Source: a virus. From it: a DNA stretch of 64,000 nt. Shown one piece after another: positions 35,745 through 49,141 of this stretch. Made by a program: the position numbers and the translations under genes. The notes beneath the pieces are model-generated. The model saw only the letters and a list, made by a program, of their open reading frames with translations, searched no databases and had not been told where the DNA came from. The DNA lies in IMG/VR virus record IMGVR_UViG_3300045988_143938; one strand, written 5' to 3'. Within the stretch, counting starts at the first letter, position 1. Each line of letters starts with the position of its first letter.

Positions 35745-35924
35745 TTATTCCTTCGTCAGTCTAACTCTCATAAATTTACGGCATCTCCTGCATATAATCC
35801 TAATGGAAGAACTTCCGCAAACTTCCTCAACGTCCATTATTTTCTGTTTACACACCGGACATATTGCAAAGTTTCCTTTTCTATCAGGTAACTCTTCATC
35901 GAGTTGGACGTCAATTTTTATCAT
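35745..35924 (-). CDS. Com-like zinc-ribbon protein, 59 aa (below ORF-track cutoff)
   Basis: MIKIDVQLDEELPDRKGNFAICPVCKQKIMDVEEVCGSSSIRIICRRCRKFMRVRLTKE; CPVC...CRRC spacing as in Mu Com family. Confidence 0.5.
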   Translation of the reverse strand: MIKIDVQLDEELPDRKGNFAICPVCKQKIMDVEEVCGSSSIRIICRRCRKFMRVRLTKE

Positions 35925-35943
35925 ATCACATGATTTAATAATG

Positions 35944-35951
35944 CAAATATA
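35944..35951 (-). promoter_or_regulatory. -7 box TATATTTG (minus strand)
   Basis: Plus strand reads TGCAAATATA. Confidence 0.45.
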
Positions 35952-35965
35952 TCACCTATTTTCTA
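35952..35965 (-). promoter_or_regulatory. TAGAAAATAGRTGA motif copy 3
   Basis: tcacctattttcta on plus strand; inverted partner of copy 4. Confidence 0.5.
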
Positions 35966-36004
35966 TAAAAACAACATTATAGACATATTTTTATGGGTAA
36001 AATT

Positions 36005-36018
36005 TAGAAAATAGATGA
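36005..36018 (+). promoter_or_regulatory. TAGAAAATAGRTGA motif copy 4
   Basis: tagaaaatagatga, 7 nt upstream of plus-strand -7 box. Confidence 0.5.
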
Positions 36019-36025
36019 AAAATCG

Positions 36026-36033
36026 TATATTTG
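36026..36033 (+). promoter_or_regulatory. -7 box TATATTTG
   Basis: Upstream of the terminase leader. Confidence 0.45.
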
Positions 36034-36063
36034 CACTATATATTACTCATAGAGCTGTGAATC

Positions 36064-36110
36064 AAGCCGGAGTATGCAAAATCATATTGCATGCGACGGC
36101 TTATTTTTTT
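36064..36110 (+). terminator. leader hairpin plus T7 immediately before terL ATG
   Basis: AAGCCG...CGGCTT outer stem, ATGCAA/TTGCAT inner stem, then ATTTTTTT. Confidence 0.4.
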
Positions 36111-38801
36111 ATGGAATACGACGGAATTGTACATACAAAAAATGGAGAGGGCGTATTTACTTATGCGCACATGGAAAAGCTGCGTGAATATGGAAATCCG
36201 CTTAATATAATCGCCCAAAAAGGATGTCAAGAAAAGTTCCTTGCGTCTCCGGCAGATATTACTATATTTGGAGGAAACCGTGGTGGCGGAAAGGCGCTGA
36301 TATTCAATGAATTAGTGTGTACTCCGTTCGGATTTAGAAAAATCCAAGACATTAAAGCCGGCGACATAATCACTGGCCTTGACGGAGGAATGCAAAGGGT
36401 TGTTTACAACTCCTATCAGGGATTTAAAGAGTGTGTAAGACTTAAATTCGTTGACGGCTCTTATGCTGACTGCTGCATAGATCACTTATGGAATATCAAG
36501 CAATCTAACCATTGTTCAAAGAAAAGGGCTTTATATAACCTCCCCTTAGAGGATGAATGGCGGGTGTGGACTACTCAAATGATTATAGACCACATGGAAA
36601 AGCAGAAGGGGAAGAAGCAGCCGCGCCATTTATCTGTTCCGTTGTGCAAGCCAGTTCGATTCACCAAAGGGAAATACTTCAAGCCTAAATTCAGTCCGTA
36701 TCTGATTGGTGCGCTCATCGGGGACGGATGTATTGCCGATAGTGTAATCAGTAAAAACTGCTGTTATTTATTTAATCCTGACGAGGAAGTCATTGGCGAG
36801 TTCAAGAAATCAGTAGGGTATTCTTCTTGCGAGTTTGAGAAAGGCTGCTACCGCATGCGCATCAACGACAAAGAGCTTATCGCAGAGATTCAGAAATTGA
36901 ATATAACAGGGCGTGCGGCAGATAAACACGTTCCTGACATGTATTTATATGGGTCGCTGGAGGAAAGATGGGCGCTTGTTCAGGGCTTAATGGATACCGA
37001 CGGAACTATTGATGAAAGAGGGCACCTGTCTTATACTACAATAAGCAAACAGCTTGCGGAAGATGTAAAATTCCTTATCAACAGTTTGGGAGGATTGGCG
37101 ACGATTGGCAGAGGCACCGCGGGGTATAGAAATAGCAATGGAAAATTTATCCAATGTAATGACGCATACACTCTTTATATAAGAATCCCGGATGCCGAAA
37201 GGATGTTTCGCGTAAAAAGGAAAAAGGAAAGATGCAAACCTTATAATGGCGGAATAAGCATCAATGCGAGAAGAATTATAGGCTACGATATGATAGGGAA
37301 GAAGGAGTGTTGCTGTATTGCAGTAACCAATCCGGATAGTTTGTTTCTGACAAGGGATTTTATTGTCACCCATAATTCTTGGGCCTTGCTAATGGAGGTC
37401 TTGAAAGATATAAATAACCCGAATTTTGCTTCTGTAATCCTGAGAAACGAAAAAGAGGACTTGAGTAATATAGTAAACAAGTCTTATGAACTTTTCTCTC
37501 AATACGGAAAGTACAACCGCTCTATCTCGGACATGACTTGGAACTTCTATAACGGAGGTTTTTTAAAGTTTTCCTATTATGCGGATTCTTACGAAGACTT
37601 CGTAAAGCGTTTTCAGGGAAAAGAGTTTGCCTTTATCGGTATAGACGAAATCACTCACTCTGATTACCTGAAGTTCAAATACCTTATTACCAACAACCGT
37701 AATGCCTACGGTATAAGAAACCGTTTTTATGGCACATGTAACCCTGACCCGGATAGCTGGGTACGTAAATTCATAGACTGGTGGATTGATGAAAACGGTA
37801 ACCCTATTCCGGAGCGAGACGGGGTAATACGCTATTGCTTCATGGATGGCGACCGACCGGAAGATATTTACTGGGGGGATTCCGTAGACGAAGTTTATAA
37901 CCAATGCAGGCATATCATAGATCCGTTGCTTACGCCGGGTCTTATCAGTAAGGGTTACGACAAGTCGGCATTCGTGAAGACAGTCACATTCATAAAGGGA
38001 AAGCTTGAAGAGAACGTTGCTCTTATATCTTCCGACCCTAATTATTTAGCCAACCTGGCCCAGCAGGACGAAGAATCTCGCGCAAGGGACTTGGAAGGGA
38101 ACTGGAACTTTAAAGCTGCCGGGGATGATATTATCAAGATGGAACACATGGAGCGCTTCTTTAAAAATACCGCCCAATACGGAGACGAGAAGCGTAGGGT
38201 ATCATGCGATATTGCATACGAGGGAGGAGACAACCTTGTCTTGTGGCTGTGGATCGGGAACCATATCGAAGATGTATATGTGAGTAGGGATAATTCCAAG
38301 CGGACGGAAGAGTGTGTTGCCCATAAACTTAGAGAGTGGGGCGTGCTGGAAAAGGATTTTGTTTTTGACTTAAACGGCCCCGGCCAGGATTTTAAAGGGA
38401 AATTCCCCGATGCGGTCAGGTTTAATAATATGGCTGCTCCAATACCCGCGACAAAAGCGGATGAGAAATCAATCAAGTATGTGTACTCCTCTTTAAAATC
38501 ACAGTGTGCGGATATTCTTGTAAAAAAGATAAAGAACGAGGAGATATCCATAAATCCCGATTTGTTATCGCGCAAATTCTCCGGTAACGGATATTCCGGA
38601 GTAACCCTTTATAATATTCTTATGAAAGAGAGAAAGGCTATTCGGGACGCGGAAACAGACAAAGGGTTTGCCTTGATTAAAAAGGAAACTATGAAAAAAT
38701 ACGTCGGGCACTCTCCTGACTTTATAGAAGCGATGATTTACAGACAAATTTTTGATATAAAAAAACATAACACAAAACCAAAAGGATTATGGAGATTATA
38801 A
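36111..38801 (+). CDS. terL: terminase large subunit, interrupted by intein
   Basis: Walker A GGNRGGGK|S split by insert; Walker B FAFIGIDEITH. Track start 36015 lies upstream of the predicted -7 box, so ATG 36111 is preferred. Confidence 0.9.
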   Translation: MEYDGIVHTKNGEGVFTYAHMEKLREYGNPLNIIAQKGCQEKFLASPADITIFGGNRGGGKALIFNELVCTPFGFRKIQDIKAGDIITGLDGGMQRVVYNSYQGFKECVRLKFVDGSYADCCIDHLWNIKQSNHCSKKRALYNLPLEDEWRVWTTQMIIDHMEKQKGKKQPRHLSVPLCKPVRFTKGKYFKPKFSPYLIGALIGDGCIADSVISKNCCYLFNPDEEVIGEFKKSVGYSSCEFEKGCYRMRINDKELIAEIQKLNITGRAADKHVPDMYLYGSLEERWALVQGLMDTDGTIDERGHLSYTTISKQLAEDVKFLINSLGGLATIGRGTAGYRNSNGKFIQCNDAYTLYIRIPDAERMFRVKRKKERCKPYNGGISINARRIIGYDMIGKKECCCIAVTNPDSLFLTRDFIVTHNSWALLMEVLKDINNPNFASVILRNEKEDLSNIVNKSYELFSQYGKYNRSISDMTWNFYNGGFLKFSYYADSYEDFVKRFQGKEFAFIGIDEITHSDYLKFKYLITNNRNAYGIRNRFYGTCNPDPDSWVRKFIDWWIDENGNPIPERDGVIRYCFMDGDRPEDIYWGDSVDEVYNQCRHIIDPLLTPGLISKGYDKSAFVKTVTFIKGKLEENVALISSDPNYLANLAQQDEESRARDLEGNWNFKAAGDDIIKMEHMERFFKNTAQYGDEKRRVSCDIAYEGGDNLVLWLWIGNHIEDVYVSRDNSKRTEECVAHKLREWGVLEKDFVFDLNGPGQDFKGKFPDAVRFNNMAAPIPATKADEKSIKYVYSSLKSQCADILVKKIKNEEISINPDLLSRKFSGNGYSGVTLYNILMKERKAIRDAETDKGFALIKKETMKKYVGHSPDFIEAMIYRQIFDIKKHNTKPKGLWRL
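36294..37376 (+). mobile_element. 361-aa intein with LAGLIDADG homing endonuclease, class 3 hallmarks
   Basis: Starts Ala after GGGK, ends IVTHN|S; DHLW (block B Trp), ECCCIAV (block F Cys), THN (block G Thr); LIGALIGDG and LVQGLMDTDG motifs. Confidence 0.8.
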
Positions 38802-40324
38802 ACACACGCCAGATTATGGTACGTCGTCCGTTCCGGAGGATATTGCCAAATGGCTATAAAGCCGCTGCTGGGGTTATTTCAGGAAACACCCTCATCAATG
38901 AACCGTCTGATAATCCTACGTATCAGATAATAACTCAAATGGACTTCATGCGTGAGTTTGAGCCTTCGGGACATGCGATTAATGACCCGCTGGTATATCC
39001 TGACAGGTTAAGGCAGGACCCGGAGACGAAGCAATGGTTCAGGGAGTATGTTATCAGATGCGCTTTTGCTTTTCAAAGAATAATAACGGTCAAGCATCTT
39101 GTCCACCTTTGCGGGAATGATATTCAGTTTGAAATGGAAGGCGATACCGAGAATGAGAAAGTGAAAGATACCTTCTTTAAATTTAGAACGGGATGGGCCG
39201 TAAAAGACATGGAAATCGCATGGTACGAGGCCGCTAAGTCTGTAAAGATAACCGGAGATACGGCATTTGTGGGATACCTTAGAAAAGGAAAATTCTATTG
39301 GAAAGTCCTTTCTTTTGAAAAAGGTGATGTATTGTATCCTCATTTTGATAATGTTACAGGAGAGCTATCCTTGTTTGCCCGTTCTTATTCCAATTACGAC
39401 AGCAGCGGGAATATTGTGACCGACTGGCTGGAGGTGTGGGATGAAAAGTATCTCCGTCGCTTTAAAAAAGGAGGAAAGGGATACAGCAAAATCAAACAAG
39501 TAATAAAAAACTTATTTGGATTGGACGGTTATGAACTCGTCTCTCAGCAAGAGCATGGGTTTACGTTTATTCCTGTGGCTTACCATAGATGCGATGCCGG
39601 AGCTTGTTGGTCTCCCTCGCAAGACAGTATAGAGCAATACGAACTCGCTTTCTCCCAGCTATCTCAAAACAATACAGCCTATGCGTTCCCGATTATGTAT
39701 TTCAAGGGAGAAAATATAAATATAGATGGAGGTGTTGACGGAACTGTAAAATGTATCACAATGGGGCCGGACGATGAAGCCGGATACCTTAATAAACAGG
39801 ATGTATCTACGGCTTTCGAAAAGCAGCTCGATACTCTTTACAAGCTGATATATGAACAGTCGTTTGCTGTAATTCCTCCGGAGGTAAGAAGCGGCGATCT
39901 TCCGGGTGTGGCTATAAAGCTGCTTTATTCACCGGCGTTTGAGAATGCGATGAAGGATGCGCAAGAATATAACCGCCTCGTGGACGACATGGTGAAGATT
40001 TTCACCTATGGATACGGAGTGGAAACGGAAAATCTTATAGACCTGCAAAACTTGAGTGTATATGCTTGGATAAAACCCTATATCCATTTGAATGAATCGG
40101 AGCTTGTGCAGAATCTTGCCACTTGTGTGCAAAACGGATTTTTATCACGTCAAACCGCAAATGAGCAGATTCAAATGTATAGCAATCCCCGCGACTGGGA
40201 CAGGATAATGAGAGAGAAAAAGGAAGAGCAGCAGGCTGATATCCTTTATCAACTCAAAACCACGCAACCTACTCCCGAAGAAGAGGAACCCGAACACAAC
40301 CCGGCTGGAGATGATAAGCAATGA
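38789..40324 (+). CDS. portal protein
   Basis: 511 aa directly after and overlapping terL; acidic C-terminus. Confidence 0.8.
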   Translation: MEIINTRQIMVRRPFRRILPNGYKAAAGVISGNTLINEPSDNPTYQIITQMDFMREFEPSGHAINDPLVYPDRLRQDPETKQWFREYVIRCAFAFQRIITVKHLVHLCGNDIQFEMEGDTENEKVKDTFFKFRTGWAVKDMEIAWYEAAKSVKITGDTAFVGYLRKGKFYWKVLSFEKGDVLYPHFDNVTGELSLFARSYSNYDSSGNIVTDWLEVWDEKYLRRFKKGGKGYSKIKQVIKNLFGLDGYELVSQQEHGFTFIPVAYHRCDAGACWSPSQDSIEQYELAFSQLSQNNTAYAFPIMYFKGENINIDGGVDGTVKCITMGPDDEAGYLNKQDVSTAFEKQLDTLYKLIYEQSFAVIPPEVRSGDLPGVAIKLLYSPAFENAMKDAQEYNRLVDDMVKIFTYGYGVETENLIDLQNLSVYAWIKPYIHLNESELVQNLATCVQNGFLSRQTANEQIQMYSNPRDWDRIMREKKEEQQADILYQLKTTQPTPEEEEPEHNPAGDDKQ

Positions 40325-48007: not shown

Positions 48008-49141
48008 TTACAATTTACTGTCCATCTTTTCAAATTCTTCTTGTACGGACTTGTTTAGCACTTTGGCGTAGATCTGTGTAGTTTTTATATCCGTATGTCC
48101 CATCATTTTTGCAAGGTTTTCAATCGAAACTCCCATATTCAATGCCATAACCGCAAAACTATGCCGGGCCATGTGCGAATGTAGGTTTTGTTTTATCCTC
48201 GCGAGCTCCTGAACGACTTTCAGTCTTAAATTATACTGATAGTTGCTTATTACGGGCAGTTTGAAATCGTATTTTTGCAGAATTTCCATTGCGGGCTTAA
48301 GAAGCATCAGGAAATACTCTTCTTCCGTTTTTACTCTTACGTCTCTTATAAAGAATTTGTTCCCTTTCTTGATTACACCGCTAAAATCAAAGTTGAACAA
48401 ATCTGCATAAGACAAACCCGTAAAACATTGGAATACGAACAAGTCTCTAACCCGTTCAATGCTCTCGGATGCCGTTTTTAAGCCTTGTATTTGCTTTATC
48501 TGTTCTAAGGTGAGGTATTTTATACCTTCGCTCTTTCCGCGCTCAAATTTGAGCTTATTATACGGGTTGTCTTTCAGCAAATCATATTTGATGGCTTCGT
48601 TTATATATCTTTTCAGGCGCTTATGATAACCATGTATTGTCGTCTGCTTGTTGTACTTCCCATGAAGGAAATTGTCATAGTGCATTATGTTAGCCGTAGT
48701 AACGTCCGTAAAGTAAACGATCCGACCGAACTCTTTCAGGGATGTTATTAAGGAGGCATGCGTATTTAACGTTCCTTGCCTGAGGTCGGTTCTTTCGCCC
48801 ACTCTCCGTTTTATAAAATCTATAAAGCTTTCTTTTGTTTGGGAATACTTTAAAAAGTGTTCCAGCTTATCAAAACTGAAAGGTTCTTTGTTTTTTACCA
48901 ACCCGTTTATGAACTCGTTGATGTTCCGCATTTGCGTATCAAGCCTTTCGTTGAGGTCTAAAGATTGAACGGTATTCTTAACCTTTGTTTTTTCGCTCCA
49001 TTGGTCGGAATACAACCGAACGCCTGTACTTAACCATTTTCTTTTCCGTTCAAACAAAATTTCTATTTGAACGGTTCCTTTCGTTGTCTTGCTTGCCGTA
49101 TGTTTACGGTCAAAAACAAACCTTAATACTGGATACTTCAT
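48008..49141 (-). CDS. int: phage integrase (tyrosine recombinase)
   Basis: 377 aa; HMARHSFAVMAL...MGHTDIKTTQIYAKV; N-terminal arm-binding/SAM-like region. Confidence 0.9.
   Translation of the reverse strand: MKYPVLRFVFDRKHTASKTTKGTVQIEILFERKRKWLSTGVRLYSDQWSEKTKVKNTVQSLDLNERLDTQMRNINEFINGLVKNKEPFSFDKLEHFLKYSQTKESFIDFIKRRVGERTDLRQGTLNTHASLITSLKEFGRIVYFTDVTTANIMHYDNFLHGKYNKQTTIHGYHKRLKRYINEAIKYDLLKDNPYNKLKFERGKSEGIKYLTLEQIKQIQGLKTASESIERVRDLFVFQCFTGLSYADLFNFDFSGVIKKGNKFFIRDVRVKTEEEYFLMLLKPAMEILQKYDFKLPVISNYQYNLRLKVVQELARIKQNLHSHMARHSFAVMALNMGVSIENLAKMMGHTDIKTTQIYAKVLNKSVQEEFEKMDSKL

Follow-up and report, generated by a model that had tools for sequence, protein, structure and literature searches.

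In this work, a 64,000-nucleotide stretch of virus DNA (IMG/VR record IMGVR_UViG_3300045988_143938), hereafter called the window, was analysed with respect to an insert that splits its gene for the terminase large subunit (terL) within the ATPase P-loop. The 1083-bp insert is, with a probability of about 0.9, a bifunctional class 3 intein, in which a LAGLIDADG homing endonuclease is nested within a HINT splicing domain, the whole being placed between the invariant Lys and the Ser of the Walker A motif. A preliminary description made from the DNA letters had put an insert of 361 aa at positions 36294-37376, splitting the TerL Walker A motif, and both the insert and all the motifs quoted for it were found at these positions.

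Insert boundaries in the terminase P-loop

The insert consists of 361 codons in frame without stops; it starts with ALIFNELVCTPFG and ends with DFIVTHN, and the C-extein begins as SWALLMEV at 37377. When the precursor was used as query, 117 long homologues (823-1021 aa, mostly about 900 aa) and three short ones (P0101, P0103, and P0107; 579-582 aa, about 81% identical in the exteins) were found. The three short proteins read ...IFGGNRGGGK-SWALLMEVLKDI..., so that SWALLMEV stands directly after GGNRGGGK, and the gap corresponds to exactly the 361 residues. The TerL of Bacteroides phage LoVEphage, also without an intein, has GGCRGGSK-TFTLLME. At the DNA level, cutting out exactly 36294-37376 gave a single collinear alignment of 7.4 kb with 76.6% identity to an intein-less contig (L003), gap-free for hundreds of bases on both sides of the junction. 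The intein-less site in this contig is ...AACCGTGGCGGAGGAAAA/TCGTGGGCATTGCTT..., given also as AACCGTGGCGGAGGAAAA/TCGTGGGCATTGCTTATGG (the slash marks the junction, here and below). The spliced version of the gene was used for this comparison; a MAFFT global alignment of the unspliced gene misplaced the large gap and was discarded. Because the intein-less alleles fix them at both the protein and the DNA level, the intein boundaries are Lys(-1)/Ala1...Asn361/Ser(+1). The insert is in frame, it is missing from orthologous alleles, and its removal restores the host motif, as is expected of an intein and not of a pattern that arose by chance. After splicing, the predicted Walker A motif is GNRGGGKS, and the earlier claim that removal of the insert restores GxxGxGKS agrees with the GGNRGGGK-SWALLMEV of the intein-less alleles.

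A Cys is found 8 residues into the insert, which raises the alternative of a class 1 intein starting at Cys102 of the protein (intein Cys9), with an N-extein ending in ...GGGKALIFNELV and an N-S acyl shift at that Cys. However, the residues ALIFNELV, which would then belong to the N-extein, are not present in the intein-less homologues, where GGNRGGGK is followed by SWALLMEV. Furthermore, the position of Cys9 is occupied by Val or Ile in most homologues, and the block A spacing from residue 1 to TPFG does not vary if Ala1 or Pro1 is taken as the first residue. The start at Cys102 was rejected on the alignment with intein-less homologues, and we give it practically no weight. The start at Ala and the end at IVTHN followed by Ser+1, as first described, are retained, and the homologue alignment proposed as a check on them did not shift the boundary to Cys102.

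Splicing motifs and class assignment

Class 3 inteins are defined by the lack of Ser, Thr, or Cys at position 1 and by co-varying Trp, Cys, and Thr (WCT) at B12, F4, and G5, respectively, and their +1 residue is usually Ser or Thr and rarely Cys (PMC2807308). The insert has Ala at position 1, Trp66, Cys341, and Thr359 at the three WCT positions, and Ser at +1. Splicing blocks A, B, F, and G are all present, with the terminal His-Asn and a nucleophilic +1 residue. The motif DHLW comprises intein residues 63-66 (in the context CCIDHLW) and ECCCIAV residues 338-344.

Conservation was evaluated in a set of 118 proteins, which consists of the 117 intein-bearing homologues and the window's own protein. 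In these TerL inteins, His64, Cys341, Thr359, His360, and Asn361 are each present in 118/118, and Trp66 in 117/118. Residue 1 varies among the homologues (A, P, C, M, L, or G, with Cys in the minority), T10, P11, and G13 of block A are invariant, and the +1 residue is Ser or Thr in all of them. In a more distant set (222 intein domains, 149 representative proteins), the Trp was found in 180/187, the Cys at position 341 in 185/186, and the Thr in 182/184. The Trp-Cys-Thr triad recognised in the preliminary description is therefore well supported by its conservation in the family.

The top PDB sequence matches were gp41-1_WCT (6riz) and the class 3 DnaB inteins MchDnaB1 (6rix, 6riy) and Msm DnaBi1 (6bs8). 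In the phmmer alignment with MchDnaB1 (6rix), His64, Trp66, Cys341, and Thr359 fall on His65, Trp67, Cys124, and Thr143, respectively, and Cys341 also aligns to Cys118 of 6bs8. In MchDnaB1, Cys124, His65, and Thr143 form the catalytic triad, and Trp67 belongs to the WCT motif (Beyer et al., PMC7664689). By its sequence signature, the insert is a class 3 intein.

The N-terminal Ala could also indicate a class 2 (KlbA-like) intein, since Ala1 is common to KlbA inteins (PMC2807308); in such an intein the +1 residue would attack the N-terminal junction directly and the block F Cys would be dispensable. Class 2 inteins, however, do not have the WCT triplet (PMC2807308), which is present and invariant here, the +1 residue is Ser, and the closest solved relatives are class 3. 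The class 2 mechanism was rejected on the presence of the triplet, and we consider it very improbable.

As the block F part of the triad, the whole of ECCCIAV had been named, with its three consecutive Cys. The third of them, Cys341, is the predicted family-wide block F nucleophile, because it aligns with Cys124 of MchDnaB1 and is the only Cys conserved in distant relatives. Among the TerL inteins, Cys339 occurs in 110/118 and Cys340 in 101/118, as against 118/118 for Cys341. In the distant relatives, Ala prevails at position 339 (Cys in 44/186), and Gln and Arg, with Lys besides, at position 340. The conservation of Cys339-Cys340 (37308-37316, including Cys341) is limited to the LoVEphage-like TerL clade. 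Thus, the third Cys of the motif is universal, whereas the other two are not family-wide. As judged from these alignments, the clade-specific pair is the sole feature without a counterpart in the wider family; in all, 16 of the 361 intein residues are Cys. It is conceivable, although unlikely, that the cluster Cys339-Cys340-Cys341 makes splicing redox- or metal-conditional, so that DNA would be packaged only where the cytoplasm is reduced, as in a healthy anaerobic Bacteroidales host. The class 3 intein Msm DnaBi1 is reportedly an oxidative stress sensor. If true, such conditional splicing would tie terminase maturation and DNA packaging to the reduced host cytoplasm.

By analogy with characterised class 3 inteins, we hypothesize that splicing proceeds as follows. 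The precursor with a broken P-loop would be unable to package DNA. With His64 to activate it and Trp66 and Thr359 to help position it, Cys341 (F4) would attack the Lys(-1)-Ala1 peptide bond and form the block F thioester branched intermediate. Transfer of the N-extein to the Ser+1 hydroxyl would then produce the block G branch, and cyclisation of Asn361 would free the intein. Finally, an O-N acyl shift would restore GGNRGGGKSWALLMEV and the active terminase.

Endonuclease domain, selection, and mobility

The preliminary description had also recognised two LAGLIDADG motifs in the insert and taken them to indicate an embedded homing endonuclease, and this is supported by a Pfam match, by conservation, and by fold. 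Pfam LAGLIDADG_3 was matched inside the insert at protein residues 320-373 (E = 3.5e-10). In motif 1, Gly139, Gly143, and Gly145 are present in 118/118 and Asp144 in 117/118, and in motif 2 Asp234, Thr235, and Asp236 are present in 118/118. The AlphaFold2 (AF2) model of the intein, obtained from an alignment of 43 sequences, had a predicted local distance difference test score (pLDDT) of 94.3 and a predicted template modelling score (pTM) of 0.92. Its best PDB matches in Foldseek were the whole intein-endonucleases PI-SceI, TliVMA, PI-PfuI, and PhoVMA, followed by the free-standing monomeric LAGLIDADG enzymes I-Tsp061I and I-DmoI over about 190-200 columns. The model and the whole-chain matches show a HINT fold, and the endonuclease is of the two-motif monomeric type, with two helices that each end in a conserved Asp and with the alpha-beta-beta-alpha-beta-beta-alpha pseudo-dimer fold. 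Like the window intein, PI-SceI (1vde), PI-PfuI (1dq3), and TliVMA (7qsu) combine HINT with a nested monomeric double-LAGLIDADG domain (Foldseek E = 1e-16 to 1e-11, template modelling score 0.55-0.68), but they belong to class 1 (Cys1), have VMA and RNR as host proteins, and are 12-16% identical in sequence. On these grounds the LAGLIDADG endonuclease is apparently intact. A six-frame scan of the window with the hidden Markov model of the family gave no second intein of this family.

Compared with the nearest intein (L006), the proportion of nonsynonymous differences (pN) was 0.06 for HINT and 0.12 for the endonuclease, and the proportion of synonymous differences (pS) was 0.77-0.91, i.e., saturated, with 0.91 in the endonuclease domain. 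Because of this saturation, pN and pS are given and no dN/dS ratio. As far as these proportions tell, purifying selection acts on the splicing as well as the endonuclease domain. Because the insert splits the P-loop of an essential protein, TerL, splicing presumably works. Parabacteroides phages PF672P1 and PF672P2, which are in culture and form plaques, match the precursor over its length (92% coverage), and PF672P2 carries the same intein type (Ala1, DHLW, ECRCIKV, VVTHN/T) at the same K/T site.

The similarities of inteins and exteins do not run in parallel. The nearest exteins (P0101, P0103, and P0107; 81% identity) have no intein, and the nearest inteins (P0002-P0005; 79-83% intein identity) are found in exteins of 57-59% identity. 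In P0006, the extein is 76% identical and the intein, at a different site, 48%. Judged by this disagreement and by the presence/absence polymorphism, the intein has moved, and the discordance is the pattern that homing and site drift produce. In the proposed homing, the free intein or the precursor would cut intein-less terL alleles in co-infections or phage-prophage encounters, and after the cut the intein would be copied in by repair. It would account for the patchy distribution of the intein across LoVEphage-like Bacteroidales phages.

A second insertion site lies two residues upstream (GG/SK[ST]; 36288/36289 in the window) and holds sister inteins in most of the intein-bearing TerL homologues (P0006, P0008, P0040, and others). 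These are about 48-52% identical to the window intein; their first residue is Pro, and Ser follows them at +1. Since the LoVEphage TerL, which has no intein, shows the Walker A variant GGSK[ST] as well, the Ser of this variant belongs to the host protein and does not stem from the intein. Related TerL alleles without an intein, with the intein at K/S or K/T, and with the sister intein at GG/SK provide a natural comparison set for homing-site drift.

Several observations weigh against the reading of the insert as a functional class 3 intein. Splicing-domain models stayed below threshold in Pfam (Hint_2, E = 0.3; no Intein_splicing match), and NCBIfam gave just partial, far sub-threshold matches to models of intein-containing Tes, GyrA, and RFC. 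Moreover, W, C, and T grafted onto a class 1 intein gave no productive splicing (PMC7664689), so the triplet alone is no guarantee of a class 3 mechanism. A few family members start with Cys1; the class 1 route is chemically open to those relatives, but not to the Ala1 intein of the window. No co-conversion tract was seen in the comparison with L003, where the gene is no more similar by the junction than in its other parts, and there is thus no sign of a recent homing event. Finally, splicing and cleavage by this particular protein are ascribed to it by homology.

The lack of a co-conversion tract is also one of the points in favour of a decayed or domesticated insert, i.e., a fixed intein with a dead endonuclease and working splicing, or a non-splicing pseudo-intein in a defective phage copy. 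Moreover, synonymous sites are saturated even in the closest intein pair, so no recent transfer is documented, and the integrase in the window means that the element could be a prophage outside packaging selection. On the other hand, 117-118 of the 118 proteins keep the two catalytic Asp and the LAGLIDADG residues around them, the endonuclease domain has its low pN against a high pS, and every splice-site residue is intact. In addition, 560 sequences belong to P0001, a 99%-identical protein cluster, and the intein/extein discordance and the two insertion sites indicate repeated movement. A decayed insert is for these reasons rather improbable, and a bifunctional intein is preferred.

Table 1. 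Coordinates of the terL precursor, of the intein and its motifs, and of the integrase-like gene in the window
Feature	Position	Strand	Description and basis
terL precursor open reading frame (ORF)	36015-38801	+	928 aa including intein; ORF list, Pfam Terminase_6N
N-extein end, GGNRGGGK	36270-36293	+	First seven Walker A residues (GNRGGGK); Lys at -1
Intein, Ala1 to Asn361	36294-37376	+	361 aa, 1083 bp; intein-less alleles, AF2, Foldseek
Splicing block A, ALIFNELVCTPFG	36294-36332	+	Ala1 non-nucleophilic; Cys9 (protein Cys102) not the intein start
Splicing block B, GSYADCCIDHLWNI	36456-36497	+	His64 (B10) 36483-36485; Trp66 (B12) 36489-36491
Embedded LAGLIDADG homing endonuclease domain	36609-37238	+	About intein aa 106-315, limits approximate; Pfam, Foldseek
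LAGLIDADG motif 1, LIGALIGDG (block C)	36702-36728	+	Intein 137-145; putative catalytic Asp144
LAGLIDADG motif 2, LVQGLMDTDG (block E)	36975-37004	+	Intein 228-237; putative catalytic Asp236
Splicing block F, ECCCIAVTNPDSLFLT	37305-37352	+	Cys341 (F4) 37314-37316, predicted class 3 nucleophile
Splicing block G, DFIVTHN/S	37356-37379	+	Thr359 (G5), His360, Asn361, C-extein Ser+1
C-extein	37377-38801	+	Walker A Ser, remaining ATPase domain, nuclease domain; Terminase_6N; collinear with intein-less TerL
Tyrosine-integrase-like gene	48008-49141	-	PHROG 1, E = 7e-36

Related inteins and the host phage

Class 3 DnaB inteins, with that of mycobacteriophage Bethlehem DnaB as the prototype (PMC2807308) and with MchDnaB1 (6rix, 6riy) and Msm DnaBi1 (6bs8), share with the window intein the non-nucleophilic residue 1, the B10 His, the WCT triplet, the +1 Ser or Thr, and the insertion into an ATPase P-loop. 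The residue numbering is nearly alike in MchDnaB1, with Trp67 against Trp66 and the Cys 21 residues before the terminal Asn against 20 in the window. The Bethlehem DnaB intein is also similar in size, as its terminal residue is Asn341 (PMC2807308). The host proteins differ, since these inteins reside in actinobacterial or actinophage DnaB and that of the window in a Terminase_6-type TerL of a Bacteroidales phage. Furthermore, the solved mini-inteins have low identity to the window intein (phmmer E = 0.003-0.06, splicing blocks only), which, unlike these class 3 relatives, has the two extra clade-specific Cys (339, 340) before the nucleophile.

Class 3 inteins were already stated to occur in phage terminase large subunits, mostly in ATPase P-loops (Tori et al., PMC2807308). 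For mycobacteriophages, Kelley et al. 2016 (PMC5050341) showed splicing and endonuclease activity of TerL inteins, including a class 3 one: TerL1-c (Bethlehem gp10), of class 3, splices, and the LAGLIDADG endonucleases of these inteins cut intein-less alleles. These inteins also lie in the TerL ATPase domain, TerL1-a being at the 'classic' Lys/Thr or Lys/Ser P-loop site that the window intein occupies too, and the position of TerL1-b one residue from TerL1-a parallels the two sites two residues apart in the window family. There, the inteins named as class 3 are TerL1-c, -d, and -e at non-P-loop sites, and the class of TerL1-a and -b is not stated in the part available. In the preliminary description, the terminase P-loop was called an intein hotspot best documented in mycobacteriophages; TerL1-a and -b are P-loop inteins, and those named as class 3 are not. 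The mycobacteriophage TerL is of the Terminase_1 type, whereas the window has a class 3 intein in the P-loop of a Terminase_6N-type TerL in phages of another host phylum.

In gut Bacteroidota, TerL inteins were described in crAss-like phages of the Delta group as 'Hint-Hop type', with no splicing class (Yutin et al. 2021, PMC7886860). The preliminary description named no characterised examples in Bacteroides phages; intein-interrupted terL genes had been noted before in phages of gut Bacteroidota, with no class typing (PMC7886860). The crAss-like Delta phages belong to Crassvirales, whereas the window is LoVEphage-like (SPP1-type portal, tape measure, integrase), and the two were compared by their descriptions. 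No mention of inteins together with LoVEphage was found in the literature searched.

The intein was matched by 2456 representative clusters at E <= 1e-30 and by 10,312 at E <= 1e-10; among the matches listed, the sites are overwhelmingly GxxxxGK/[ST] P-loops of terminase-like and helicase-like proteins. The tblastn matches in GenBank phages included jumbo-phage SNF2 or 'DarB-like' helicases and other TerLs. The inteins in the jumbo-phage helicases (phage records H16-H40) are related and of the WCT type, and many metagenomic proteins (P0128, P0129, P0145, P0153, and others) hold at least two copies per polypeptide, in the P-loop and at other sites. This spread among phage ATPases shows the reach of the intein lineage. 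At least 118 protein clusters (90% identity) carry the TerL intein, one of them with 3167 sequences. The intein hence adds a new host phage group to a populous family and is an ordinary member of it; class 3 inteins in P-loops of phage TerL and other ATPases were described in 2009-2010. The finding leaves the current understanding of inteins unchanged. Class 3 inteins, for which a phage origin is proposed, have been studied mostly in actinobacteria and their phages, and they are hereby extended into the gut Bacteroidales virome. Standard profile libraries detect the LAGLIDADG domain only, and the equivalent gene of PF672P2 (OP172820.1; L002 1363-4203; WAX17163.1, 946 aa) is filed as "hypothetical protein", an annotation that misses both the TerL and its intein. 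With the intein recognised, TerL can be called correctly, and used in phylogenies, across a common group of gut Bacteroidales phages.

Pfam Terminase_6N was matched at aa 455-698 of the precursor, i.e., only downstream of the insert. In a protein-level search of GenBank phages, the window TerL was 55% identical to the large terminase of LoVEphage, and the LoVEphage group of about 71 kb from Bacteroides and Phocaeicola includes the closest annotated relatives of the terminase; megablast of 35800-39000 against GenBank phages gave no matches, so that the relatives were reached by protein-level search only. Because of these terminase relatives, the window is identified as a LoVEphage-like Bacteroidales phage or prophage. 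The gene next after terL encodes an SPP1-type portal, and major head, tape-measure, tail-fibre, primase, and integrase genes are also found in the surroundings. Given this tyrosine-integrase-like gene, the element is possibly temperate or a prophage. A search for tRNA genes across the 64-kb window gave none, unlike LoVEphage, which has an array of at least eight tRNA genes next to terL (all eight within the 5.8-kb stretch examined).

The annotated ATG of terL at 36015 is probably too far upstream. The N-termini of homologues point to a true start near Met33 (36111, MEYDG...), in which case the first 32 codons of the called ORF (36015-36110) are probably untranslated. A peptide-like sequence within this region, NRIFALYITHRAV.QAGVC, is kept in intein-less contigs too; the conserved region is perhaps regulatory, or perhaps a genuine N-terminal extension. 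The correction of the start codon leaves the intein finding unaffected. On the opposite strand, an ORF of 128 aa (36987-37373, -) lies inside the C-terminal part of the intein.

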